Source: a virus
DNA length: 64,000 nucleotides
Virus record (IMG/VR): IMGVR_UViG_3300022674_000045
Span: 1 to 64,000 of that record
Direction: 5' to 3' (one strand)
In this document: positions 49,919 through 64,000 of the stretch, in pieces
Layout of the letters: each line of letters begins with the position of its first letter
Numbering within the stretch: position 1 is the stretch's first letter
Notes under the pieces: generated by a model
The model's input: only the letters and a program-made list of their open reading frames with translations
Told to the model about the DNA's origin: nothing
Databases searched by the model: none
Translations under genes and position numbers: made by a program

Positions 49919-50815
49919 TTACAAATACCTTTTTCCACTGAACCCTCCAGGAACTCCCTTCCAATTAATAGCGATAGCTTCAGATGTATGAATGGATTCT
50001 TCATGTGAACACTTTACAATCCAATCATGAATAGCTGGATTACCATCCAATACATTAGAGATTTCACGAATTGCATCTTCAACAAACATTGGATTTTCAG
50101 CCGCAACTCTTGCAATCTCCTGCTCATCAACTCTTTTAATTACAGGATATGGTAGGGTTTTAATTCTTGATTCAACTGATTCGATAATGTCCTCCAACCA
50201 AAGATAATTTGATTCTTCAACCTCGACTAAAATGTCAGCGAATGATCTTTGATTGTGAGGAAACCCTCGACTATTATTTTCTCCTAAATGACTACATAAT
50301 TCTGCTGAACACGGACAGTAAGATGCATATTGTATTCTCACACCCTGATAGAATCTGAATACATCTTCTAATTTATAAACGTCCACTGGTTCAACATTTG
50401 TTTTTGTCAATTCTAACTGACCTTCAAATCTACATCTGTAGTAAATTGGAAATTGGTTGTCAGATAAAATTGATTTGCGGTTGATCGGCATACGAAATTC
50501 AAACCGCATATAACTTGCTATACTTTCAACATTAACCTTTAAGTCTTCTAATATCTGTTTAATCAATTTGTGTTTCAATGGCAAATCCAAATATGGTTTT
50601 AGTGTCAGGAGAAGTCGAGACATTGAAATACCTTTGGTATCTTTGTCTAGGTGAGTCCGCATAGAAACATTTGCGTTTAGTTGATGGAATCCTCCGTATT
50701 TTGATTCTAATTTAAACGGAACCTCAACATTCTCGACCCCCACCTGTTGAATAGGGATGTGGATATTTGGAGATTCGCATTGAATATCTGGTAGACATTC
50801 TTTGCTATACGTCAT
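49919..50815 (-). CDS. folE2: GTP cyclohydrolase IB (FolE2)
   Basis: PDIQ, QVGV, KGISMSR, CPCS, HNQRS, KRVDE, NPMFVEDAIR, ESIH. Confidence 0.92.
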   Translation of the reverse strand: MTYSKECLPDIQCESPNIHIPIQQVGVENVEVPFKLESKYGGFHQLNANVSMRTHLDKDTKGISMSRLLLTLKPYLDLPLKHKLIKQILEDLKVNVESIASYMRFEFRMPINRKSILSDNQFPIYYRCRFEGQLELTKTNVEPVDVYKLEDVFRFYQGVRIQYASYCPCSAELCSHLGENNSRGFPHNQRSFADILVEVEESNYLWLEDIIESVESRIKTLPYPVIKRVDEQEIARVAAENPMFVEDAIREISNVLDGNPAIHDWIVKCSHEESIHTSEAIAINWKGVPGGFSGKRYL

Positions 50816-51089: not shown

Positions 51090-51343
51090 AGGACTAAATC
51101 CTTTGGATCAAAATATTGTGGGTCTACTGGCTTTTCTTCTTCAACTTTCTTTTCAATTTTTACATCACCAACAATACCTTCTTTTGCTCGTAATTTATCA
51201 ACCTGTTCGTTTATTGATTTAACTCTTGCTTTTATTTCTTCGAGTCTTGATCTTGGACCTGCTGGTTGCCAGTCATAAGAAAATGATGAAGTATCTGATG
51301 AAGAAGAAGCATAATCGTAATAGTAATCACTCAACATTGTCAT
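51086..51343 (-). CDS. Small hypothetical protein
   Basis: ATGA-coupled to the rpoB-like stop. Confidence 0.6.
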   Translation of the reverse strand: MTMLSDYYYDYASSSSDTSSFSYDWQPAGPRSRLEEIKARVKSINEQVDKLRAKEGIVGDVKIEKKVEEEKPVDPQYFDPKDLVL

Positions 51344-54300
51344 TTGTGATCAACTCCTATCACTGTGAGATATGAGTTCAATAGCTTTACTGATTCTGGC
51401 ATTGTATCAAGTTCTTTTGTATCATCCAGAAGATTTTGCTCAATGAACCCCCTGATATAACTATTTTTCAAATCAATACAATCTGATTTGGTTGTTAAGA
51501 ACTCAAATAAATTGCATGGAGCATCATGACCGATCAAACATGCGGTTTCCATTTCACCACATCTCTGACCGCCCTTATTCTTTCTGCCACCCAATGGTTG
51601 AAGCGTTCTTCGTGCATATGCTCCAATACCACGAGCGGCCAATTTCTCTTCTGCAATATGAACCATTCTAAAGAAATAAATATAACCAACAGCAATTTCA
51701 TTTATAATTTCTGCTGCTGACAATGGGTCATATAATTTTTGTTTGAAATCTGTCCCTGTATATTCTAATGCCTTTTTAACATCTTCTAAACATGATGATT
51801 CAAATGGAGGCTGTATGATTGATAAATCTTTAATGAAAGAAACTGTAATCTTTTCTGGCATTTGTTGTTCAAACTGATTGTAATACCATCCACCATTTGT
51901 TTTGTCAATAATTTTTATGTAATTCAAGAGATACTTTTTAATATCACTTTGTTTTTCTTTTGCATTTAACATCTTTAGCATATTGATTTTCAAATCTTGA
52001 ACTGACATGGCCATATGCAATTCATAAAGCTGGCCAATGTTCATTCTTGAAATGATACCCAATGGGTTGATACAAATATCAAGATGTCGTCCGTCTTTTA
52101 ACTTTGGCATTTTTTCATGGGGAACTATTCTTGAAATGACACCTTTGTTACCATGTCTATTCGCCATTTTATCACCAACCTGAACTTTACGGAAATGAAC
52201 ACCATACATCTCAATTTTTATTCCTGCAATTTTTTCTCTTTTAAACTTGTATTTTCCAACATATGAAAATTTATCAAGATTGTTTTCTCGAATTATCTTC
52301 AATGCTTCATTTTTCTCAAACGTATCTTTAATGATTTTTTGAAGATATTTCTCTTTCATTTGTTGTTTGGATATTCTCTTTTCAACCCATTCTTGAAATT
52401 GTGGAATTTCATTATTCCATTCATTTGCAAATAAGTTCACTTCTGAAATGATAAAATTCCTTTTTGCTTCCAGAGTAATTGGTTCCGAGAATACTGAATA
52501 TTGATCTTCGGAATTTAACTTTTTAATTATTGCATATGGGTCGCCTCGATTTATTCTTTCGAGTTCGTCTGGAAGTGGTTTGTATTCGTCTTTTTCTAAT
52601 GATAATAAAACTTTATCTGGAGTTAATGTAAATGATAAATCTTCATAATGAACAGATGTTAAAACATCTTCATCAACCAATCTTTTTGAAATTACAATTC
52701 CATCTTCATAATTGTTTCCATAATAGACCATGACACCAGTTAATAAATTTTTACCAATGTTAATTTTTCCATCAAAACAAAAATTGCTTTCAGCAAGAAT
52801 ATCCCCAGCTTTAAACTTATCTCCTGGTTGGACATAAATATTCATTACATCCATATGTTCGACATATATTTTTCTATATGCAACATTGAAAATATCTGGT
52901 TGACCATCTGAATACATTACTATAATATATTCTTTATCAATGTGAACTACCTCTCCATCTTTTTTTGCTTTTTTAACAAACTGTGTCTGATCAGAATACA
53001 ATCCTTCACATCCTGAAGCAATCAATGGTGGATCAAAATTCTTTAACATGATTGATTGGCGCATTTGTGAGGATGCCATTTGTAATCTTGTTTGATCATC
53101 ATGTTTTAAGAACGGCGTCATTGATACAGGAATTGATAATGGTTGCTTTTCACATATCTCCCTTGTAAACCGAAGATCTTCATCTACTTTAACATTGGGT
53201 ATTAGGTTTTGTAGAACTCCACAATTATCACGATCAGGAGTATCTACTGGGCATATACGACCAAACATTGTTGGGCATATATCTCTTAAATGGCTTGGTA
53301 TGTTTTCTCTTTTAAAACCACCAGGCCCCAACAGGCTAATTCTTGAAAGCTTTGTTAATTCTTCAACTGGATTAATAGAAAAATCAAATTGAACTATATC
53401 AGAAACATTACACTCCGATAAGATTTGTGTGGTATTTGTACTAAATTTTGGTTGTCTTGCTGTCCGGTTTGAAAAACATAAATCGAATATTATCTTTGAA
53501 ACTTTTGCACCAACCATATATTCAAAACATCTAATTCTTTTATTTGTAAATAATGTATCATCGACAAATCCTTCCTCAATAATATAAAGGATTTCATCTA
53601 ACAATGTATCTTTGAAGAAGAATTTTCTGCTTATTGGATCAACTTTTGGAATTAAATCAATAGCATATAAAATATCTTCGCCTTTGGATTTTGCATTATA
53701 TTTTGAATACTTTCTTCCAAGTTCAGAAACAAAATCGTCTTGAGTATAACCTCTTGAATTATCCATTATATCGTCAAGGTCAGCTCTTAAAATTTCATAT
53801 AAATTTTCTGACTTGAGATCAATTGGTGCTGATAAATTGAACTTGCTTTTTATTTCATCAGCTGTATAATAAGCGCATAATACATTTACTAATGAGATTT
53901 TCTTACCAAGAAAACTCATTTTAACAAACGGTCTTTCACGAGTGTCAAGAAACAACATAATTGTTGCAACATTTGTCCGAATCTTAATATTCTCACCTCT
54001 TGTTACAACCGGAATATCAAATAATTGAAATAGAGGAACTTTTCTTCTTCCATTGATGATAACATAATTGTTGTCAATCAACTTCGGAATGAAAATGCTC
54101 AAATCAATATTTGCACTTCCTTTTTGAAGTTTGATTGCTAATGTTTGCTTGACTGTTTTTGATAATTCGCCAGATGAAAATCTGGAATCTTTTAAATCTA
54201 ATTCTGTAATTGTAAATCCAATTTCTTGTACTGGAGCAACTATTTCTCGGACTAACGGTAAAATTTGGTCATAGTCTTTTCTTCTCATTGTGAAGATGTT

Positions 54301-54345
54301 ATTAGCTTCGTCTTGAAGCTTAAAAGTAGGATTAATTATGTCCAA
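51340..54345 (-). CDS. rpoB: Multisubunit RNA polymerase beta subunit (compact, unsplit, 1001 aa)
   Basis: IINGRRKV, GPGG, GRICPVDTP, PFLKHDD...MRQ, GKNL...NYEDG, GDKMANRHGNKG, NPLGIISRMNIGQ, QPLGGR...GGQRCGEME. Confidence 0.95.
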   Translation of the reverse strand: MDIINPTFKLQDEANNIFTMRRKDYDQILPLVREIVAPVQEIGFTITELDLKDSRFSSGELSKTVKQTLAIKLQKGSANIDLSIFIPKLIDNNYVIINGRRKVPLFQLFDIPVVTRGENIKIRTNVATIMLFLDTRERPFVKMSFLGKKISLVNVLCAYYTADEIKSKFNLSAPIDLKSENLYEILRADLDDIMDNSRGYTQDDFVSELGRKYSKYNAKSKGEDILYAIDLIPKVDPISRKFFFKDTLLDEILYIIEEGFVDDTLFTNKRIRCFEYMVGAKVSKIIFDLCFSNRTARQPKFSTNTTQILSECNVSDIVQFDFSINPVEELTKLSRISLLGPGGFKRENIPSHLRDICPTMFGRICPVDTPDRDNCGVLQNLIPNVKVDEDLRFTREICEKQPLSIPVSMTPFLKHDDQTRLQMASSQMRQSIMLKNFDPPLIASGCEGLYSDQTQFVKKAKKDGEVVHIDKEYIIVMYSDGQPDIFNVAYRKIYVEHMDVMNIYVQPGDKFKAGDILAESNFCFDGKINIGKNLLTGVMVYYGNNYEDGIVISKRLVDEDVLTSVHYEDLSFTLTPDKVLLSLEKDEYKPLPDELERINRGDPYAIIKKLNSEDQYSVFSEPITLEAKRNFIISEVNLFANEWNNEIPQFQEWVEKRISKQQMKEKYLQKIIKDTFEKNEALKIIRENNLDKFSYVGKYKFKREKIAGIKIEMYGVHFRKVQVGDKMANRHGNKGVISRIVPHEKMPKLKDGRHLDICINPLGIISRMNIGQLYELHMAMSVQDLKINMLKMLNAKEKQSDIKKYLLNYIKIIDKTNGGWYYNQFEQQMPEKITVSFIKDLSIIQPPFESSCLEDVKKALEYTGTDFKQKLYDPLSAAEIINEIAVGYIYFFRMVHIAEEKLAARGIGAYARRTLQPLGGRKNKGGQRCGEMETACLIGHDAPCNLFEFLTTKSDCIDLKNSYIRGFIEQNLLDDTKELDTMPESVKLLNSYLTVIGVDHK

Positions 54346-54358
54346 GATTTAAACCTCC

Positions 54359-54544
54359 CTATTCTTTATATTCTTTTTGGTACTCATTCAAACATTTTTC
54401 TAACTTGTCATCCTCAACATAGTAAGGATCTTGATTCATATTTAAAGTGTTCATTATAAGTTGCGTTAGACGGAGATCCGGGTTTGCTACCCAGATCTCA
54501 CGAATACGCTCTAAAATTCTATTAATTCTTTTCGGGTCTCTCAC
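54359..54544 (-). CDS. DUF1040/YihD-like small protein
   Basis: MRDPKRI..IL..I..IW...PDLRL.QL...D.YY.ED. Confidence 0.7.
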   Translation of the reverse strand: MRDPKRINRILERIREIWVANPDLRLTQLIMNTLNMNQDPYYVEDDKLEKCLNEYQKEYKE

Positions 54545-57261
54545 GTTATCTTTTCTCCCTTGAGAATCTTATCCATAACTCCAGAATATCTTCCTTCATA
54601 TAAGATTCCCTGTAATATTGATCTCTTTGGATTTGAGAAAGCCATTGCTAATATCCAGCTTTCTTGGTTTGGTACAGATTGAATGCTGTAATAATCGGGT
54701 TCAACTACAGCCCTATCATCTTTCAACCGCCACTTTCTGTAATTTTTCCACATAAGCTGTGCAACAACACATTCAAAATGTACATGGTATATATCTTTAT
54801 CATATACTGCAAATAAATCATGAACTATGTCTGTATATGTTTTTCCCCTAAATTTGTGTAGTAACTGTGCGACTGATGATAGATCACCAATGATGTCTTT
54901 TTGTCTTACCGTTGGATCATTTGGATCACTTGGCTCACCTTGTTCGCCTTTGATAACAGCAGATCCAGATGTATGGAATGTTCGCAGAACCAATTGAGTT
55001 CCTCTTTCACCAAGGGTTTGTGCTGCAATAATTCCTATAAATCTACTGTTCAAACTTTTGTATAAATCTCCGTAACATGTTTTGCATATTTTTGGATTTT
55101 TACAAAGTATCGGACTTCTAATTTCAATTAGTTTTCCGACCAATTGTTTGTAATTATTTTTTGTTATTAATTGAAGACCATCATTTTCTTTGTAATATCT
55201 GTTAACCAACATTCTTGCTTTTCGTTCTGAATTAACATCGACTTGTAAAAAGTCATCAGTTCCACAATCATCTAATTGATCATCAATCTGTAAATTAGCA
55301 CATGTAAAAATTAATTTTCTTGAAAGATAACCAGATGTTCCTGTATTCAATGCAACATCAAGAAGACCCTTTCTACAACCATATGTTGAAAAGAAAAACT
55401 CTTCTGGGGTCAATCCTTCGATTAAGGAATGTTTAATTGGGGTTGGTAAAATTTCCCCATCAAAATTTGAAATGAAACCACGACTTAAAATTAATTGTTT
55501 AACCTGATCCCAAGTACCTCTTGCGCCTGACTCAATCATATATGCATATTTAAAATGATCTTTCAATTCATTAATCATTTTATCATCTGAAAGAGCTGTT
55601 AACTGTTCTCTAAGATCGCCTTTTGAAAAAACTTCATCTCTTATCTCTTGTGCTCTATCAAGAGAAAAATCATCTAACGACATTGTACAACCATATAATG
55701 TTGCATATTTGAATCCAATTTTCTTTACATTGTCCAAGATTTGAATTACTTGTTCTGGTGGATATTTATCTTTAACATTATTCAATATTTCCATCAGTCT
55801 TCCTTTTGCAATTATTCCTGTTACTAAAGGATAATCTTCAGGAAGTTGATTATTAAATTCTGCTTCTCCCCATGGAATTTGTTTTCCCTTGCATGTTAAT
55901 TTCTCTTTTGATTCATTAAATATCGGGGATGTTAAATAATAAATTCCGAGAATAACATCTTGGCTTGGAGTTGTTGTAAGAGTTTCATTTGCTGGGCTAC
56001 TTAAATTTTTCACAATAGAAATTTTTGCTATAACTTCTTCTTTTGCTTCACTTGTAATTGGGACATAAACTGCCATTTGATCTCCATCGAAATCTGCATT
56101 GAATGGCGGGCATACTAATGGATGAATCTTAATAACATGATCGGTTGTTAATTTAATTTTAAATGCAAGCATCCCTAATTTATGAAGCGATGGTTGTCGG
56201 TTTAATACACAATATTCATTTGTAATAACTGTTTCGCAAACTCTATAAAGAATCAAATTATCTTTATCAATACATTCATCTACAAAATCAATTGCTTTAT
56301 TCAACAACTTAAATTTTCCCAACTCAATAATTCTTTTAGCTATTGGTAATTTAAATATTTCTAATATCATCAAATATGGTAATTTACATTCATCCAACGC
56401 TAATGTTGGGTCAGGAGTAATAACGGCTCTACCAGAGAAATCAATTCTTTTACCAAGAATATTTCCACGAATCAATCCCTCTTTCTTTGCCATTTTTTCT
56501 AAAATCCTTGTGTACAACTCATTGACATCTTTCTGTAATTGTTTGAAATATGTATAATACACGGCTTTATCTCTGTGAATATCAATAATTGTATCTTTCA
56601 TTATTTCTTTTTTCGTTAATATCTGGACATAATATCTATTTATTTTGTCCATTAATTGTTTGGCTTCTCCTGAGCTTTTTGATGTTGGTCTTAAATCTGG
56701 TGGGAGAACTATAATTTGATCAATTAACAAATTATCAATATTCTCCATTACAGTTTCCCATTCCTTTACATTATCAGCTAAAGCATCTTCAGCATATGTT
56801 TTGACCAACTGTAGAATTGCATCTGTTCGCTCCCACCTTTGTGCATCAATGGGGATTGTATCTTCATTCATCGTAACAACAAATTCTTCGTCTGTCATAT
56901 AAAGAACGCTTTTGTCATTACGCATTAAATCATCCAATGCTTTTTTGAAATTCTTTCCTGCAATATCAACTAACAAATCATAAAACAATGGATTTACAAC
57001 TTTAATTGGAATTGTGATTTTAGCAAATCTTTTTCTTCGTTCATCACTGTTAACTATGTCCACGCCACATTCTTTACATTGCCCGCCGACTTTTGAAACA
57101 CCATGATATTTTCCACATTGACATGTATAATTTCTCACGGGTCCAAAAATTTGCTCAGAGAATAATCCTTCAGAATGAAATTTTCTTTTTCCGAATGTTT
57201 TTAGAGACGTTACTTCGTCTAGGTTTTCACAAAAAGATGCGTAATCTAAAATCTTTGGCAT
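54541..57261 (-). CDS. rpoC: Multisubunit RNA polymerase beta' subunit (compact, unsplit, 906 aa)
   Basis: GLFSEQIFGP, CQCG..C..C, VLPPDLRP, LGKRIDFSGR, LNRQPSLH, catalytic NADFDGD, SGARG, T..SGYL.R, GERGTQL.LRTFH. Confidence 0.97.
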   Translation of the reverse strand: MPKILDYASFCENLDEVTSLKTFGKRKFHSEGLFSEQIFGPVRNYTCQCGKYHGVSKVGGQCKECGVDIVNSDERRKRFAKITIPIKVVNPLFYDLLVDIAGKNFKKALDDLMRNDKSVLYMTDEEFVVTMNEDTIPIDAQRWERTDAILQLVKTYAEDALADNVKEWETVMENIDNLLIDQIIVLPPDLRPTSKSSGEAKQLMDKINRYYVQILTKKEIMKDTIIDIHRDKAVYYTYFKQLQKDVNELYTRILEKMAKKEGLIRGNILGKRIDFSGRAVITPDPTLALDECKLPYLMILEIFKLPIAKRIIELGKFKLLNKAIDFVDECIDKDNLILYRVCETVITNEYCVLNRQPSLHKLGMLAFKIKLTTDHVIKIHPLVCPPFNADFDGDQMAVYVPITSEAKEEVIAKISIVKNLSSPANETLTTTPSQDVILGIYYLTSPIFNESKEKLTCKGKQIPWGEAEFNNQLPEDYPLVTGIIAKGRLMEILNNVKDKYPPEQVIQILDNVKKIGFKYATLYGCTMSLDDFSLDRAQEIRDEVFSKGDLREQLTALSDDKMINELKDHFKYAYMIESGARGTWDQVKQLILSRGFISNFDGEILPTPIKHSLIEGLTPEEFFFSTYGCRKGLLDVALNTGTSGYLSRKLIFTCANLQIDDQLDDCGTDDFLQVDVNSERKARMLVNRYYKENDGLQLITKNNYKQLVGKLIEIRSPILCKNPKICKTCYGDLYKSLNSRFIGIIAAQTLGERGTQLVLRTFHTSGSAVIKGEQGEPSDPNDPTVRQKDIIGDLSSVAQLLHKFRGKTYTDIVHDLFAVYDKDIYHVHFECVVAQLMWKNYRKWRLKDDRAVVEPDYYSIQSVPNQESWILAMAFSNPKRSILQGILYEGRYSGVMDKILKGEKIT

Positions 57262-57266
57262 GTGTT

Positions 57267-57521
57267 TTATTCTCCTATGGTTCCAAATTTATTAACAAGA
57301 AATTCACCTATTTCATAGAAATGTTGTTTCACCTTGTCTGAAATAATTCGATCTAAGTCTGGCATCAATTCTCGAGCCACAATTCTTATATCATCAATTG
57401 CAAGGTCTATTAATCTTTCTCGTAGAGCTTTATCAATAAGTTTAACAATTTCTTGTTCGAGCATTGAATGTTGTTCTTCTTCCATAATGTCTTTAGGAAA
57501 TAATATCTTTTTCTCTATCAT
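57267..57521 (-). CDS. Small hypothetical protein
   Basis: ORF track; operonic. Confidence 0.6.
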   Translation of the reverse strand: MIEKKILFPKDIMEEEQHSMLEQEIVKLIDKALRERLIDLAIDDIRIVARELMPDLDRIISDKVKQHFYEIGEFLVNKFGTIGE

Positions 57522-57726
57522 TACATTTCCCTTTTCCTGATATTTTCTCTTTTGCTTTTATTGCATATTTGTCTGCAACATCAGAGAAAACATCTTTTGT
57601 TCGCTCTACAAGAGCATCAAATATATCTCTTGAAGCAGATTTTACTGCTTTTGTTAATTCATCAACAACCCCACAAGCTTTCTCTGTGAGTTGTTCATCC
57701 GTTAGTCTCTTATTGTCGTTTGCCAT
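57493..57726 (-). CDS. Small helical hypothetical protein
   Basis: ORF track; SD AGGAG. Confidence 0.6.
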   Translation of the reverse strand: MANDNKRLTDEQLTEKACGVVDELTKAVKSASRDIFDALVERTKDVFSDVADKYAIKAKEKISGKGKCNDREKDIIS

Positions 57727-58070
57727 GCTCCTATCACCTCTTGTTTCCTGTATTCTATTTCATCCCAAGGTGTAAAGTAACAATCATCTAAATTAAAGCA
57801 ACATAGCATCGTTGAAATCATCTTCAATGTATTTTCGTTTAATTCTAACTCCCTTAATTTATTTGGAATACAAAATTCACCTGTACCTGGATCAGCATTT
57901 GGATGTGGATTATTTAAAAATATATTATCTATTTTTCCATCTACTGTTTGAATTTTATATCCGCGAATAACAAACTTTGGATCTAATTTTAATATTTCAT
58001 GAATTTGATTTCTAAAAATTAACTTGTAAGGAGTATGAACATTTCTGATTGTTTCAGTTTTTATGTTCAT
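57702..58070 (-). CDS. Putative E2/UBC-like conjugating enzyme
   Basis: PHPNADPGTGEFCIP matches the E2 HPN-x(n)-G-x-x-C active-site pattern; downstream FNLDD; coupled (TAATG) to an E1-like gene. Confidence 0.6.
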   Translation of the reverse strand: MNIKTETIRNVHTPYKLIFRNQIHEILKLDPKFVIRGYKIQTVDGKIDNIFLNNPHPNADPGTGEFCIPNKLRELELNENTLKMISTMLCCFNLDDCYFTPWDEIEYRKQEVIGAWQTTIRD

Positions 58071-58930
58071 TATGCAGCTCCTGTTTCAGGTATCAATTCA
58101 ATAAAATATTTTCCATCCGTTTGATTTAAGGCAACCACAAAATTGTTAAATTGACATTGGGTTGCAACGGCTCTCGATAGATTGATTATTATATCCCCAC
58201 TTGTTCTTAAGGAATTTTTTGGGATTGAAAACTCTGACATTGGGAATAAACTACTCCCAACAAACACATCTACATCAGCTTGTTTATTTGCTTGTAGAAT
58301 TGGAACTATTTTTTCCGGAAGGTTAACAAATTTTTCTTCATTATCCGGATCTTCATATACAATATCATATGAGCAACTGTCAAGATGTTTTACATGATCC
58401 AACTCATATTTTTGAATAGATTGATCTTTTATGAGTTTTGAAATTGTATCATTATAGACCAACATTAATATTAGACTAGCTGCGTATCTCAAATCTTCTT
58501 TTGTTAATTCTGTTAGATACTTGCCCTCTGATTTGACTCTATACTCAACATTTTTTCTACAATCCACCATAAGATATCTTGAAGAAATATAAAGTCTTGC
58601 ACTGATTTCTTTTAATCTGTCATATGTGAAATCTCTGCAATCCAAAACTAAATCACATTTTGGGATTTTAGTTTTTCCTTCAATATATTTCTCATTAAAA
58701 CTGATTATTGTAACATCAGGATTTTTACGAGAAATAATTTCATCTAGGGCGTCTGTCTTTTTCAAACCAACATCAATCTGTCGATATATGGAGTTTTTGA
58801 GGTTTTTTGATTCAACTGTATCGTGGTCTATAACTATTAGAGTTTCAAGAGTTTCAAGATTCGAAACAGCGTTGGCAACAAACCCTCCAAGGGTTCCAAT
58901 GCCAATTACTGCGATTGATTTATATACCAC
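58070..58930 (-). CDS. Divergent ThiF/E1-like adenylation protein with extra C-terminal domain
   Basis: IAVIGIGTLGG, IDHDTVESKNL, VG.KKTDAL, DLVLDCRD. Confidence 0.85.
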   Translation of the reverse strand: MVYKSIAVIGIGTLGGFVANAVSNLETLETLIVIDHDTVESKNLKNSIYRQIDVGLKKTDALDEIISRKNPDVTIISFNEKYIEGKTKIPKCDLVLDCRDFTYDRLKEISARLYISSRYLMVDCRKNVEYRVKSEGKYLTELTKEDLRYAASLILMLVYNDTISKLIKDQSIQKYELDHVKHLDSCSYDIVYEDPDNEEKFVNLPEKIVPILQANKQADVDVFVGSSLFPMSEFSIPKNSLRTSGDIIINLSRAVATQCQFNNFVVALNQTDGKYFIELIPETGAA

Positions 58931-58954
58931 GTCTCAATATTCTCCCTTTCTTAG

Positions 58955-58993
58955 TTCCTTGGTATGGAGAATTTAATCCCCATACCAAGGGAA
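58955..58993. other. Intergenic stem-loop within the Ubl operon
   Basis: CCTTGGTATGG/CCATACCAAGG inverted repeat; no U-tract on the coding (minus) strand. Confidence 0.65.
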
Positions 58994-58997
58994 TGTT

Positions 58998-59579
58998 TTA
59001 TGCTACAATATCTTGCAATTCTATTAGTTCAAAATCTTTTTTCTTACTATAAGTTCTGACAAACTCAATCTCTGTCGGACCAACAGGTTCTGGTCTGTAT
59101 TGAGCTTTATATTTAAAATTTTTGTTCGCTATTTCAACAGGGTATGACAACGGTATTTCATATAAATATTTCTTTATATATTTATTACCTTCAAGCATCT
59201 GCATTTGTATGGGAGTATTTGGGTCAATTGCCCTAAGCTCAGATACAATTGTTTGTCTAAAAATTGCATCATCTCGCTCATTTCTTATTTTCATCTCCCT
59301 CTTTACAAACTCATCTTGACGGCCTTTACCATTTATTTTATAGAAATTTTCTTTTCGTTTAAGGGATTTAATAGCACGTCCAAAAGATTTGTTTTTCCCC
59401 TTTAAAATATTGAATGAATCTAATAGCGAACAGATTGAAATTCCTCTTGCTTCAATCCTACCTGCTTCAGAATTGAATAACAAACATACTGTCATTGCAT
59501 TGCTCATGATTGGAGTTTTTACATTATAGAAATTAATTCTATCAACTCCATGTATATCCAAGAAATTTTTATTTAACAT
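58998..59579 (-). CDS. Hypothetical protein with common phage ARG.S.CS..D.F...KG.....GRA motif
   Basis: ORF track; motif recognised, function unknown. Confidence 0.65.
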   Translation of the reverse strand: MLNKNFLDIHGVDRINFYNVKTPIMSNAMTVCLLFNSEAGRIEARGISICSLLDSFNILKGKNKSFGRAIKSLKRKENFYKINGKGRQDEFVKREMKIRNERDDAIFRQTIVSELRAIDPNTPIQMQMLEGNKYIKKYLYEIPLSYPVEIANKNFKYKAQYRPEPVGPTEIEFVRTYSKKKDFELIELQDIVA

Positions 59580-59599
59580 GCTAATACCCCTTTGTTTGT

Positions 59600-59618
59600 G
59601 GGGGTCCGAAGACCCCCC
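59600..59618 (-). other. cUUCGg tetraloop hairpin 3' of the Ubl gene
   Basis: Minus strand GGGGGTC-TTCG-GACCCCC; no U-tract. Confidence 0.8.
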
Positions 59619-59633
59619 ATATTCAACTCTATA

Positions 59634-60113
59634 CTAGCAACCCTTTTTGCCTGCGGGTTTCAGGAACTCAAGGTTGTCACCTTGCTTCAACACATAATCA
59701 CCGCCAACGTCTTTGCCGCTGACCAGACCGGTGGAAAGTTTGTCCACGTTCAGGACTTCCCGAAGGAACTCGCCCACCTGTTTCACACTACGACCCACGA
59801 CTGGGAAGTTACCGGAAGAGGCACCGCATGAAACATGAATGGTTGTGGTTGTGCGGCTTCCAAATTCACCGCTTGGTTTGGTGATAACGCTGCGACCTGT
59901 AAATTCAACACCAGCAATAGCACCAGTGCCTGTAGCAGGAGCCGCTTTGGTGATACTAACGGCCGAACGACCGAACTGACTAAGGATGGACGCAATCACG
60001 TCTTCCTTCGGACGTTTGGTGACTCCAACAATACCCAACTCATCGACACACATACGTTTCAACTCTTTAGAGGTCTTCGCTTCCAATTCTTCTCTGGTAA
60101 AGTATGTACCCAT
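59634..60113 (-). CDS. Ubiquitin-like (beta-grasp) protein with N-terminal Rho-N/HeH-like domain
   Basis: C-terminal IHVSCGA...FPVVGRSVKQV...LNV...VSGKDV..DYVLKQGDNLEFLKPAGKKGC; N-terminal ELEAKTSKELKRMC..LGI.G.TK..KEDVI..IL; start 60113 after AGGAG. Confidence 0.8.
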   Translation of the reverse strand: MGTYFTREELEAKTSKELKRMCVDELGIVGVTKRPKEDVIASILSQFGRSAVSITKAAPATGTGAIAGVEFTGRSVITKPSGEFGSRTTTTIHVSCGASSGNFPVVGRSVKQVGEFLREVLNVDKLSTGLVSGKDVGGDYVLKQGDNLEFLKPAGKKGC

Positions 60114-60134
60114 GTTACAATTCTCCTTTTTCAC

Positions 60135-60818
60135 TTAGTTGATTGCTCTAATTTTAGAGCTTGCGTTCATTGACAGAATATCAAAATAGATTTCTGATCT
60201 TTCATAGGACTCTTTAACTACTGCGTTATAAAAAGTCCAACACATGATTGTTGCGACCCCCAAATTTGTAAAATATAGCTGGGGGTCAGAGTTAGCTAAT
60301 TCTTCACATGACATCTCATTTGGTAACTTGTCGGTTGGATTTGCAATCTCAGGATGGTATCTGCACAAATCAGGTGTAAGGTCTTTTCCTTCCTTACGAA
60401 CATACAATTGTACATTTCCATCAGTAAATTCATTTCCTCCGGAGATCAAAACAACATTTTTTAATTCTTTACAATAATTCCCTACTATCATCCGGGTCTT
60501 ATGATTGTCAACGCCCATAAACACAATATCGCCTTCTAGAATAACTTCCGAAATGTTTTCCGGAGTTACATATTCTTCAAAGGCCTCCAACCTCAATTTA
60601 GGATACTTCATCTGGAGCTCACCGGCTTTAATATCAGCTTTATTCCCGAGTCTAACAAACTCTTGTCTTTCATAATTTTTTGCTTCGTATTTGTCTCCAT
60701 CTACAAGCAAGATATCAGCTGATAAATCATTTGAATAATTTAGAAATCGGCACAATCTTTCTATAAGGATTGAACCGACCCCGCCGAGCCCTATCACAAC
60801 AATACCCATTTTATTCAT
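60135..60818 (-). CDS. E1/ThiF-family Ubl-activating enzyme
   Basis: VIGLGGVGS, VDGDKYEAKNYERQ, NKA, GVDNHKTR, SGGN..GNV, and MSCEE....PQL..TN with a likely catalytic Cys. Confidence 0.9.
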   Translation of the reverse strand: MNKMGIVVIGLGGVGSILIERLCRFLNYSNDLSADILLVDGDKYEAKNYERQEFVRLGNKADIKAGELQMKYPKLRLEAFEEYVTPENISEVILEGDIVFMGVDNHKTRMIVGNYCKELKNVVLISGGNEFTDGNVQLYVRKEGKDLTPDLCRYHPEIANPTDKLPNEMSCEELANSDPQLYFTNLGVATIMCWTFYNAVVKESYERSEIYFDILSMNASSKIRAIN

Positions 60819-60820
60819 TG

Positions 60821-62500
60821 TTACTTCTCCTTCCCAAACACACGTTTAAACATTGCAAATAATGTATCTTCCCGTTTTTGAGCAGAGGGTGGTTCCGGGA
60901 TTGGTTTGCTTGCTCCATTTGGTTCAGGAATTCTTTCAATAGTCTGATCGGATTTTATCGCCTCTTGAAGAGCTACACGATTAATCTCTTCAGTTTCCGC
61001 TGATAAATATTCACCTGAGTCAGTTCTACTCTGTTCAATCAGTTGTGCTTCTTGTGAATAGCAGGCACTTCCCCCACGTATTTCATCCGGTGGGCTGTCG
61101 ATCAGTGAATAACAGAACGGGCATTGTTTCTCATCAGCAAAACGATGAAAACTATTTCCGCAAGATGGACATGTAATAAAAGCTGATGGTGGTCTATAAC
61201 CATCTTCTGGTTTAAGTGGTGAATCGTCTTCCTTGGTGTAATGATTTGGAAGTTCATCTTCATTTACTAAACTCAAATATTCATCGGTTTTACAATTTGG
61301 ACATACTGGCAACATAAGAGCGTCTGTATTATCCACGACGATTTGTTTACATTTATCACATTTATAAACTTCTGTTTCGTCAAAGTCGTCCTCTGATTGT
61401 TCTGCCAGGAATTTATGACCTCTGAATACACATGTCTTGCAGGGAAAGAACTCATCGTCTGCGCCATCGAATACCACATCATGTTTTGGAAACTCAATAG
61501 GTTTAACTTTTACGCCCACATTAAATGGACTGGCTGCTCTATTATCCATTCCTGGAAGTGGCAGCTGTTTTTGAGTTGGAGTTGTTCTGGCAGGAGCTGT
61601 ATATCTTCCTGCTTGGTTCCACAATGAGGCATCGAAATTTCGACCCCATCCTGGACTCTGACTTCTATGTTGACCATAAACTCCATACCCATAGTTGTAT
61701 CCGTAATTATTATATTGATATTGATATGTGCCTTTTTCAACCATTCCCATCCACTCGGATGGAACTTTATGATACTTTTCGGATACATTAACCACATAGC
61801 GTTTGTCATATCTTCTATAAGAATATGAAAACTGATTGGTTGCTTCTTTAACTTCTTCCATCTTGCCATTGATCCATCTATAGACACGTCTGGTTGGCCT
61901 CTGCTCCACTTCATCAATGTCTTTTGTTTTGATCAATCGCTCTACATAGTCTTCTGGTTCGACAACAAATCTATGACCATTGGCAACAATTGAAGCTGTA
62001 ATGCTAACCTCATCGTTATTGACATTACCAACGGTGATATGTAATCCATCAAAATGTTCTTCATCTTTATCATCCGTTCCTGAATGAAATGCTGACATGC
62101 TGGCATGACTATGAATTGTGCCAACCATTGTCATTCCTTCTATGGTAATAGCTTTGTTATAATCACATGCTGCACCTGTCACTTTTTGATGCGGGGGAAC
62201 AATTTTATAAACTCTTTTTGTTTCATCATAAAATAAAAGGACAATTGATTCCCCATAATATTCTTTATATACCTCTCTGAAAAATGCAACAACTCTAGCA
62301 AATTGCCCGCCAGGAATCTTTTTAATGTTCATACGGGCCATCTTTTCAACACTCTCCAAAATGGAAATATTCTGAACTGGAGCGATACTTTCCATAATTC
62401 CCATTTTCTTCTTTAGAAAAATCCCCTCTTTCGCTACGATATAACATATATCATCATCCGGGATGGGGGAAGTCCCATCATTCACATGAATCTTGAACAT
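60821..62500 (-). CDS. JAB/MPN+ metallopeptidase (Prok-JAB) with C-terminal Zn ribbons
   Basis: E...PHQKV...GTIHSHASMSAFHSGTDDKDE (HxH-x7-S-x2-D); CDKC/CPNC and CPSC/CPFC pairs; start 62500 after AGGAG. Confidence 0.9.
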   Translation of the reverse strand: MFKIHVNDGTSPIPDDDICYIVAKEGIFLKKKMGIMESIAPVQNISILESVEKMARMNIKKIPGGQFARVVAFFREVYKEYYGESIVLLFYDETKRVYKIVPPHQKVTGAACDYNKAITIEGMTMVGTIHSHASMSAFHSGTDDKDEEHFDGLHITVGNVNNDEVSITASIVANGHRFVVEPEDYVERLIKTKDIDEVEQRPTRRVYRWINGKMEEVKEATNQFSYSYRRYDKRYVVNVSEKYHKVPSEWMGMVEKGTYQYQYNNYGYNYGYGVYGQHRSQSPGWGRNFDASLWNQAGRYTAPARTTPTQKQLPLPGMDNRAASPFNVGVKVKPIEFPKHDVVFDGADDEFFPCKTCVFRGHKFLAEQSEDDFDETEVYKCDKCKQIVVDNTDALMLPVCPNCKTDEYLSLVNEDELPNHYTKEDDSPLKPEDGYRPPSAFITCPSCGNSFHRFADEKQCPFCYSLIDSPPDEIRGGSACYSQEAQLIEQSRTDSGEYLSAETEEINRVALQEAIKSDQTIERIPEPNGASKPIPEPPSAQKREDTLFAMFKRVFGKEK

Positions 62501-63998
62501 GAAGGAAACTCCTCTCTTCTTGTAAAAATTGAAGTTGTGATAATGAATTTTCAATAAACAATCCATGGAAATTAGGAAATGCCCATGTGGCTTCCATTTT
62601 AGATTGCTCTGTTGGACTTATTCTTGGATTTGGAATACAATCCAATACTGTGTGGTTCTTTACATAATTGTCTATTGTATATGTTTCTGGATACGATGTG
62701 TAATATCCAAGAGACATCATTCTTGGGGTTTTGCTTTCATTAGTTCTTATAACTAACCACCCAAATGAATTTTGATAATCCCCACCAACACCTGTTAAAA
62801 TATCACCAGGTTGTGGTTTAATCTTTGTAATGTCAATTGGAGCGTGGGCTAATGTTGCCCATTTTTTCGACTTCATCCCCACTCTTTTAAATTTCTCCAT
62901 CATATCACTATACCACAATGTACAACAATTTGAGCATAGAACTAATGGTTCATCTCCACCCGTATCTGTGATAAATCCAATAATAATATTTACATCTTTC
63001 TTTGGGAAATGTGGAATATAACCATGTTGTGCAATAATCTTAGTTCCAGCTGTAACTCTATCGAATTTGTTGGTTATCTTTCTAATTTTGCCAACACTTA
63101 TTATTGATGAACCTCTACTACCTGATATACCCTTCACATATTCAACTTGTGTTAAAGCTCCATCTTTATCACTTAACACAAAATTCAATGTGCCTTTAGC
63201 TTCATCTATCGTGAATGCTGTGATTGTTCTTACCATCAGCATATTAATTGGGTTATTCCAATCAGAAAATACGACCTTATCTCCAAGATCAAACCTAATG
63301 TTGAGATCAAAACTTTCAACTTCAAATGTAAGGCCATCATTTTTGATTAGATGTTCTGCTACTTGTTTAATATCGGGGGTTGATGTAGAGTGATTATTAT
63401 CATAAACAACTCCGCCTGGTGTTGCCCAACAATAACTCTCAACTCCAGCATGCCTCATATCAGTCTGAGATAATAACTTTCTCCCAACACGAAATACTTG
63501 TGGTAATGGTCTGATTTCATCTGCTGTAAATAATCTTCTTTGCTTTCGACCAAGCATTGACATTCTTCTAGATGAACTATCTCGTACCTGTAAATTATAT
63601 CGTTGATCTTGGGGTGAGTACGATTTGTCTGTTCCCACAAATGAAAATTTCAAAGTTCCATCTTCACGAACATCAAGACCAGTATATTGAGCATTACTTC
63701 CAGCATGATATGGCCCAGAGTTTACTGAACGGATAATAACGTAATTTTCTTCTTTGTTCAATATAATATTATCATATTTCGGAGTATCTAAATTAAAAAG
63801 TTCTCCTTCTGTATTTTCAAGAATATAAAATGAATTACCTATTCTTGCTTCCGTAACTCCATCTCTTGCATTTCTAATGAAATGAACTTTTCTGTAACTT
63901 GGATTTCCATACCCATCTTTGACGACTATAATATCGCCTTCTTTAATAACTGTCCCATTTTTCATTGTGCCTTGTTCATCATATCTTAATTTTTTGGC
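62478..63998 (-). CDS. 5'-truncated large hypothetical protein upstream of JAB
   Basis: Frame stays open past 63965 to the window edge. Confidence 0.65.
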   Translation of the reverse strand, partial: AKKLRYDEQGTMKNGTVIKEGDIIVVKDGYGNPSYRKVHFIRNARDGVTEARIGNSFYILENTEGELFNLDTPKYDNIILNKEENYVIIRSVNSGPYHAGSNAQYTGLDVREDGTLKFSFVGTDKSYSPQDQRYNLQVRDSSSRRMSMLGRKQRRLFTADEIRPLPQVFRVGRKLLSQTDMRHAGVESYCWATPGGVVYDNNHSTSTPDIKQVAEHLIKNDGLTFEVESFDLNIRFDLGDKVVFSDWNNPINMLMVRTITAFTIDEAKGTLNFVLSDKDGALTQVEYVKGISGSRGSSIISVGKIRKITNKFDRVTAGTKIIAQHGYIPHFPKKDVNIIIGFITDTGGDEPLVLCSNCCTLWYSDMMEKFKRVGMKSKKWATLAHAPIDITKIKPQPGDILTGVGGDYQNSFGWLVIRTNESKTPRMMSLGYYTSYPETYTIDNYVKNHTVLDCIPNPRISPTEQSKMEATWAFPNFHGLFIENSLSQLQFLQEERSFLHVQDSCE

Positions 63999-64000
63999 AC

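Follow-up and report, generated by a model that had tools for sequence, protein, structure and literature searches.

Ubiquitin-style protein tagging in prokaryotes appears in the searchable literature either as a host antiphage defence or as part of PRTRC-type plasmid cassettes, and the locus described here raises the question of what a bacterial virus does with the genes of such a pathway placed beside the genes of its own RNA polymerase (RNAP). The stretch of DNA analysed (the window, 64,000 nucleotides) comprises bases 1-64000 of the 101,627-bp IMG/VR virus record IMGVR_UViG_3300022674_000045. The completeness of this record is estimated by CheckV at ~33%, which places the genome size near 300 kb; this size, together with a tail sheath encoded in the record and the bacterial-type, unsplit RNAP subunits beta' and beta that both lie in the window, argues that the fragment comes from an uncultured jumbo myovirus. 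Megablast of the region against the GenBank phages returned no match, and hence no close relative. We consider it probable (roughly two chances in three) that the locus encodes a phage-owned ubiquitin-like protein-conjugation cassette, in which a core related to the PRTRC/type 6d cassettes (a Prok-E2_D protein, a JAB peptidase, the adenylating enzyme E1a and Ubl, a ubiquitin-like protein) is accompanied by a second, degenerate E1-like protein, E1b, as well as by a minimal E2 of the HPN type (mini-E2).

The arrangement of these genes provides the first line of evidence. In order to avoid circularity, related loci were retrieved by alignment of rpoC, and the best 80 of 149 relatives, with rpoC identities of 53-83%, were taken. 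Among the 55 rpoC-anchored loci that extend at least 8.3 kb upstream, 53 carry the genes for the Prok-E2_D protein, JAB, E1a, Ubl, E1b and mini-E2 in this order directly upstream of rpoC, and in the remaining two only a detectable mini-E2 is missing; the arrangement is therefore not a product of chance. E1b and mini-E2 are found together in 68 of the 71 loci whose upstream sequence spans 1.9 kb or more, a profile search recovers mini-E2 in loci where tblastn had missed it, and the gene order was the same in every locus retrieved with E1a or mini-E2 as the query. A preliminary description of this DNA had listed a JAB, an E1, a Ubl, a second E1, an E2 and two small open reading frames (ORFs) running into rpoC/rpoB; its parts list and ORF positions all proved correct, and the synteny with the polymerase genes extends, as above, to the relatives. 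The genes are tightly packed as well: the 878-aa gene that encodes the Prok-E2_D domain overlaps JAB by 23 nt, the JAB stop and the E1a start are 2 bases apart, E1b and mini-E2 have one base in common, and the last small ORF is separated from rpoC by 5 bases. There are no terminator-like sites on the coding strand at the gene junctions, and this, taken with the packing and the fixed synteny, suggests that the cassette is co-transcribed with the RNAP genes. Sigma-70-like sites were no commoner than in shuffled sequence, and signals of this kind may go unused in a phage that brings a polymerase of its own. The fixed linkage to the RNAP genes suggests, for the cassette, either joint expression with the transcription machinery or an action upon it.

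The second line of evidence comes from the parts themselves, beginning with the peptidase and the first adenylating enzyme. The JAB ORF is open to position 62566, and as its orthologs begin at M23 of this ORF we place the start at 62500. The protein matches Pfam Prok-JAB (PF14464) with 26.6 bits against a cut-off of 25, and NCBIfam PRTRC_A (TIGR03735) with E=6.5e-12, the alignment spanning positions 29-187 of the 192 in the profile and scoring 45.4 bits against a cut-off of 101.8; judged by its sequence, it is a clear relative of PRTRC_A and not an equivalog. Its JAMM motif, E84 with H130-x-H132-x7-S140-x2-D143 in the numbering of the 559-aa protein, is invariant in 15 orthologs, which upholds the HSH-x7-S-x2-D pattern read in the preliminary description. 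The C-terminal half is less constant across these orthologs: its length differs, as does its count of CxxC pairs, only one of which is conserved. E1a scores 70.2 bits against the ThiF/MoeB/E1 domain (PF00899), above the cut-off, and has the GxGxxG motif (GLGGVG at residue 10), the Arg-Gln finger (NYERQ at 48) and the Mg-binding Asp (VDNHKTR at 103). The MSCEE motif, already singled out as the likely catalytic site, contains an invariant Ser-Cys and lies in a strongly conserved stretch past the Rossmann core; its cysteine, Cys171, is accordingly named here as a candidate thioester site. Against PRTRC_ThiF (TIGR03736), E1a reaches 35.9 bits (cut-off 144.75) and E1b 15.5 bits. The best matches of E1a by sequence in the PDB are TcdA and UBA5, not the canonical E1s, and no rhodanese domain is present in E1a.

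The 878-aa protein runs past the end of the window, and the guess that a Prok-E2 domain resides in its missing portion was borne out by a Prok-E2_D-like domain near its N-terminus: residues ~160-230 match Pfam Prok-E2_D with E=3.6e-5 and 24.0 bits, the cut-off being 25. The same family is matched by nine of 13 orthologs (best E 9.9e-7), with Cys177 invariant, and a PDB profile search with the domain gave no match. The domain is followed by ~550-600 residues without family assignment, for which the ESM Atlas returned multi-barrel proteins (KOW, Agenet, BAH) at TM <=0.24; the C-terminal part may thus consist of repeated small beta-barrels, a suggestion that we treat as a lead only. One relative has two tandem, paralogous E2_D-type genes upstream of JAB (L097 872-5676). 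An apparent fusion of E2_D to JAB in L011 was rejected after two in-frame stops were located between the genes, and no fusion was seen among 81 loci.

Ubl is modelled with moderate confidence (pLDDT 64), and the structural matches of the model are almost all beta-grasp proteins, with MoaD chains among the best; the assignment of its C-terminal domain to this fold, proposed in the preliminary description, is thereby sustained. A PDB profile search with the domain gave only a dubious match to an FHA domain. The protein ends in GKKGC, in which the K-G pair is invariant among 38 aligned sequences and is followed here by one Cys. The same description proposed that JAB would trim this terminal Cys, exposing the Gly. 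Ubl already ends at the Gly in ~40 of 64 orthologs from the rpoC-anchored set and in 47 of 120 database homologs, so that trimming cannot be the sole task of JAB, and the proposal survives as a possibility where an extra residue is present. The G+C content of the Ubl gene is 50.4%, and that of its neighbours is 29-39% throughout.

E1b and mini-E2 form the second, less familiar half of the cassette. E1b is ThiF-like over its N-terminal half only (first ~110 residues, 57.3 bits), and in this respect the earlier designation as a second E1 holds. When aligned to E. coli ThiF and MoeB, however, the Arg-Gln finger is replaced by Asn-Ser in every ortholog, and E1b is for this reason probably not an ordinary second E1. 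Against the PADLOC models it matched 28 of the CBASS Cap2 type, the best at 6.9e-11. Of 75 orthologs, 73 end in G-[A/G/S]-A, among them those whose C-terminal domain otherwise differs; such constancy of an extreme C-terminus might be expected of something that is itself adenylated. The C-terminal domain to which this end belongs (~90 aa) gave nothing in a PDB profile search or in Pfam searched to E 10, and no usable match in the ESM Atlas; its comparison with the Ubl domain by hhalign gave a probability of 0.13, and the one stand-alone short homolog found is probably a fragment.

The preliminary description had called the 122-aa protein an E2 from its HPN...G..C signature, and a UBC-like core is what we find. 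In 37 sequences residues H56, P57, N58 and C67 do not vary, HPN...C is kept in 70 of 73 further orthologs, and the model (pLDDT 91.9) has UBC E2s as its best structural matches. As in the canonical eukaryotic UBC-type E2s (Pfam UQ_con, PF00179), HPN is followed by a Cys 9 residues past the Asn, and the beta-meander, active-site loop and next helix superpose on UBC residues ~30-140; the full UBC fold is absent and the family HMM does not match. Clustered at 50% identity, the mini-E2 family comprises 304 clusters; the members that were scanned match no Pfam model, and ten distant relatives have no Pfam domain. Some homologs (P0062, P0117) are filed at NCBI under the names of archaeal metagenome-assembled genomes (Pacearchaeota, Heimdallarchaeaceae), and are probably phage contigs that were binned wrongly.

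Drawing upon what is known of these families, it is reasonable to propose a pathway for the cassette as a whole. JAB would remove the extra residue past Gly158 where Ubl is made with one, E1a would adenylate Gly158, and Ubl would then be held as a thioester on Cys171 before being handed to Cys177 of the E2_D protein, to Cys67 of mini-E2, or to both. From there it would pass to target proteins at their lysines. The choice of targets would probably fall to the long C-terminal stretch of the E2_D protein, and the mark would be reversible by JAB. E1b is most likely a non-catalytic partner of E1a, or else an adaptor for the translationally coupled mini-E2. As Ubl carries a Rho_N/HeH head, tagging would add to the target what is likely a nucleic-acid-binding module. 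Conjugation is favoured by the family and motif evidence for each part, by the persistence of the cassette at rpoC identities down to 53% and by the return of the order E2_D, JAB, ThiF in cultured phages, in one of them near a four-repeat Prok_Ub protein, and genuine conjugation is reported for related bacterial Ubl cascades (PMC11601603; 10.1101/2022.03.31.486616). The remark that no sulfur-transfer partners accompany these genes in the window can be widened, as MoaE, ThiG, cysteine desulfurase and rhodanese above cut-off are missing from the whole 101.6-kb record.

Several points weigh against this proposal. PRTRC_A, PRTRC_ThiF and Prok-E2_D are each matched significantly, yet with scores under the curated cut-offs, and the literature yielded no functional study of PRTRC cassettes. 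Ubl matches neither Prok_Ub nor other Pfam Ubl families, and its tail offers a single Gly after Lys, not Gly-Gly. That one Ubl should serve two E1-like and two E2-like proteins is left unexplained, a purely structural role for E1b leaves its conserved extreme C-terminus unaccounted for, and the analysis brought to light neither an E3-like protein nor a target. Lastly, the record represents one third of the genome, and the host could supply partner enzymes for sulfur transfer.

Two further explanations give E1b a larger part, and both we regard as unlikely. In one of them the locus houses two separate cascades, E1b being the second transferred protein: its C-terminal domain would be an internal Ubl or the counterpart of the substrate tail of cGAS, and the G-x-A end, once adenylated, would go on to mini-E2 independently of E1a, Ubl and the E2_D protein. 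The constancy of that end in an otherwise divergent domain is what one would anticipate here, as are the overlap and co-occurrence of the E1b and mini-E2 genes, and there is a precedent in CBASS, where a protein without a beta-grasp fold is adenylated at its extreme C-terminus (10.1101/2022.03.31.486616). Against such a role stand the lack in E1b of the Arg-Gln finger that is normally needed for adenylation, a profile comparison that found no likeness between its C-terminal domain and the Ubl domain, and the empty Pfam and PDB profile searches described above. The other, to which we attach a similarly low likelihood, is a two-tier cascade of eukaryotic character, in which a heterodimeric E1 would be made up of E1a and the finger-less E1b, mini-E2 would be recruited by the C-terminal domain of E1b unless this domain is itself transferred by way of G-x-A, and the HeH-headed Ubl would be placed on phage or host transcription machinery, redirecting transcription during takeover. 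Were this true, the mini-E2 family would amount to a large stock of classical E2s of the HPN type that resides in viruses, apart from those of eukaryotes and archaea.

It is also conceivable that the main job of these proteins is to undo or jam host Ubl immunity (Bil, type II CBASS, Bub), with JAB stripping host conjugates and the E1- and E2-like proteins sequestering or mis-charging host parts, and this we consider distinctly improbable. The known bacterial Ubl cascades are described as antiphage (PMC11601603; 10.1101/2022.03.31.486616), E1b does resemble the CBASS Cap2 E1 domains, and it appears to be catalytically impaired. However, a pure inhibitor would have no use for an intact E1a or for a conserved Ubl whose tail is intact, JAB, Ubl and both E2s match no PADLOC model, and an order that holds at 53% rpoC identity is more in keeping with a core function, since accessory anti-defence genes usually vary. 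Least probable in our estimation is a sulfur-carrier pathway, in which E1a would turn a ThiS/MoaD-type carrier into a thiocarboxylate supplying sulfur for a thiolated nucleotide, a cofactor or a DNA/tRNA modification and JAB would only unmask the carrier, like Mec+ on CysO: the MoaD matches, the name 'molybdopterin converting factor small subunit' given by JGI to some Ubl homologs, the nearness of E1a to TcdA and UBA5 in the PDB and the nucleotide-modification genes that flank the block (radical SAM, FolE2, QueD-like) lean towards it, and against it stand two unrelated E2-like proteins with invariant Cys co-conserved with the cassette, the sulfur-transfer partners missing from the 101.6-kb record, the lack of a rhodanese domain in E1a, the K-G tail in place of G-G, and a 50-aa HeH head and long linker that would be unusual for a carrier.

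Features of the cassette and its immediate surroundings, given as positions in the window.
Feature	Position	Strand	Remarks
878-aa protein, C-terminal 506 codons in window	62478..64000	minus	gene extends to record base 65114, past the window
JAB/JAMM metallopeptidase, 559 aa	60821..62500	minus	PRTRC_A-like N-terminal half; variable C-terminal region with five CxxC pairs
E1a, compact ThiF-type adenylating enzyme, 227 aa	60135..60818	minus	full nucleotide-binding motif set
Ubl, 159 aa	59634..60113	minus	Rho_N/HeH-like helical head, low-complexity linker, C-terminal beta-grasp domain
G+C-rich hairpin GGGGGTC-TTCG-GACCCCC	59600..59618	minus	7-bp stem, TTCG loop, without U-tract; just past Ubl stop; read from sequence
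193-aa ORF	58998..59579	minus	found in only some relatives
Hairpin, 11-bp stem	58957..58990	minus	between 193-aa ORF and E1b; read from sequence
E1b, 286 aa, GTG start	58070..58930	minus	ThiF-like; GxGxxG, DxD, DCRD kept
Mini-E2 (minimal E2), 122 aa	57702..58070	minus	HPN...C; start codon overlaps E1b stop (TAATG)
Pair of small ORFs that overlap (77 aa, 84 aa)	57267..57726	minus	between mini-E2 and rpoC; kept in closer relatives
Phage multisubunit RNAP: beta' (906 aa), 61-aa ORF, beta (1001 aa)	51340..57261	minus	fixed downstream neighbour of cassette

Read along the minus strand, the full order of genes is radical SAM, WYL_2 and a 123-aa ORF (all three past the end of the window), the 878-aa gene, JAB, E1a, Ubl, the 193-aa ORF, E1b, mini-E2, the two small ORFs, rpoC, the 61-aa ORF, rpoB and FolE2. 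The 193-aa ORF is probably an insertion rather than a core part, given its patchy occurrence. Conversely, the WYL_2 (Sm-like barrel) protein and the 123-aa ORF directly upstream of the E2_D gene (L002 3115-3828) are kept in nearly all related loci, and may for that reason belong to the cassette. On either side of the block lie genes for a FolE2-type GTP cyclohydrolase (window 49919-50815) and a QueD-like protein (L002 11593-12012), and these suggest a 7-deazaguanine modification of DNA or nucleotides in the phage. Five small proteins with the N-terminus M-[KR]-x-K-x-DFVTNSS in common, divergent thereafter, are also encoded in the surroundings (L002 4881-5629, 9087-10194; record bases ~66880-72190), two of them next to the conserved radical SAM gene, on its downstream side. 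Between a gene for an Mre11-like nuclease and these DFVTNSS genes stands an 85-aa ORF (L002 8861-9118) with the prepilin-type N-terminus KGFTLVELLVAI, which hints at a bacterial host.

With respect to precedent, our searches of the literature found no description of a phage-encoded cascade of E1, E2, JAB and Ubl, such kits having been described only in cells, and neither a comparative paper on jumbo phages nor a 2026 review of them mentions systems of this kind. The nearest item is a preprint on an Asgard-archaeal virus with three ThiF/E1-like genes, which we take by its description and not by sequence. The cassette had initially been put forward as the best candidate for a new system; this did not hold for its core, which has a known relative among mobile elements and simpler counterparts in other phages. 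Bacillus phage vB_BauM_KLEB27-3 (OM634661) encodes a four-repeat Prok_Ub protein (5e-27), a Prok-E2_D protein, a JAB annotated as PRTRC_A and a ThiF, and Vibrio phage D69 (OZ195729) a Prok-E2_D protein, a JAB and a ThiF. Both share the order E2_D, JAB, ThiF with the present phage, and their proteins are 26-38% identical to ours, over parts only; neither has E1b or mini-E2, and in the stretches read neither set of genes lies beside RNAP genes. A search of 50,697 phage records in GenBank did not turn up the pair of E1b and mini-E2, which has no family in Pfam either, and in PHROGs the only matches were to unnamed families, for the E1s alone.

The known relative of the core, on sequence grounds, is the PRTRC/type 6d cassette of plasmids and integrative and conjugative elements, to which the Prok-E2_D protein, JAB, E1a and Ubl are distantly related. 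Operon type 6d was described by Iyer, Burroughs and Aravind in 2006 as comprising an E2-like protein, a JAB with an N-terminal extension, a ThiF and a beta-grasp protein ending in Gly (PMC1779556), and we equate it with PRTRC because of the PRTRC_A and PRTRC_ThiF matches. Common to both are a JAB that bears an additional domain at its N-terminus, an E1 of the ThiF type without rhodanese, an E2-like protein lacking the classical His (here one whose match to Pfam Prok-E2_D lies just under the cut-off), a small protein of the beta-grasp kind in which the terminal Gly is conserved, and carriage by mobile elements. In contrast, the phage proteins do not reach the curated cut-offs (45 vs 102, 36 vs 145 and 24 vs 25 bits), the phage E2_D domain is fused to ~600 extra residues, and the phage Ubl has a Rho_N/HeH head and no Prok_Ub match. 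The phage furthermore adds E1b and mini-E2, keeps the cassette in a fixed place beside the RNAP genes of its core genome, and shows no ParB_N match in the 101.6-kb record, which is about a third of the genome.

What the cassette would be expected to have in common with CBASS Cap2/Cap3, Bil and Bub is adenylation by an E1, thioesters at the cysteines of E1 and E2, and the trimming and removal of the mark by a peptidase, JAB or another. Type II CBASS, Bil and Bub are host-encoded defences, whereas the phage cassette is encoded by the virus, and the E1-E2 models of PADLOC (2023 copy) match only the Rossmann parts of E1a and E1b. A cassette fixed throughout a lineage beside the phage's own RNAP genes makes it testable what a bacterial virus tags, and why. 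Finally, eukaryotic heterodimeric E1s consist of one active and one degenerate adenylation domain. A comparable pairing is found here at the level of the genome, where an intact ThiF domain (E1a) accompanies one that lacks a key nucleotide-binding pair (E1b); it differs in that the phage has an extra C-terminal domain on the degenerate protein and in that the pairing of E1a with E1b is known from the genes alone. The minimal HPN-type E2 and this coupling of an intact with a degenerate E1 bear upon the origin of the eukaryotic E1 and E2 architecture.

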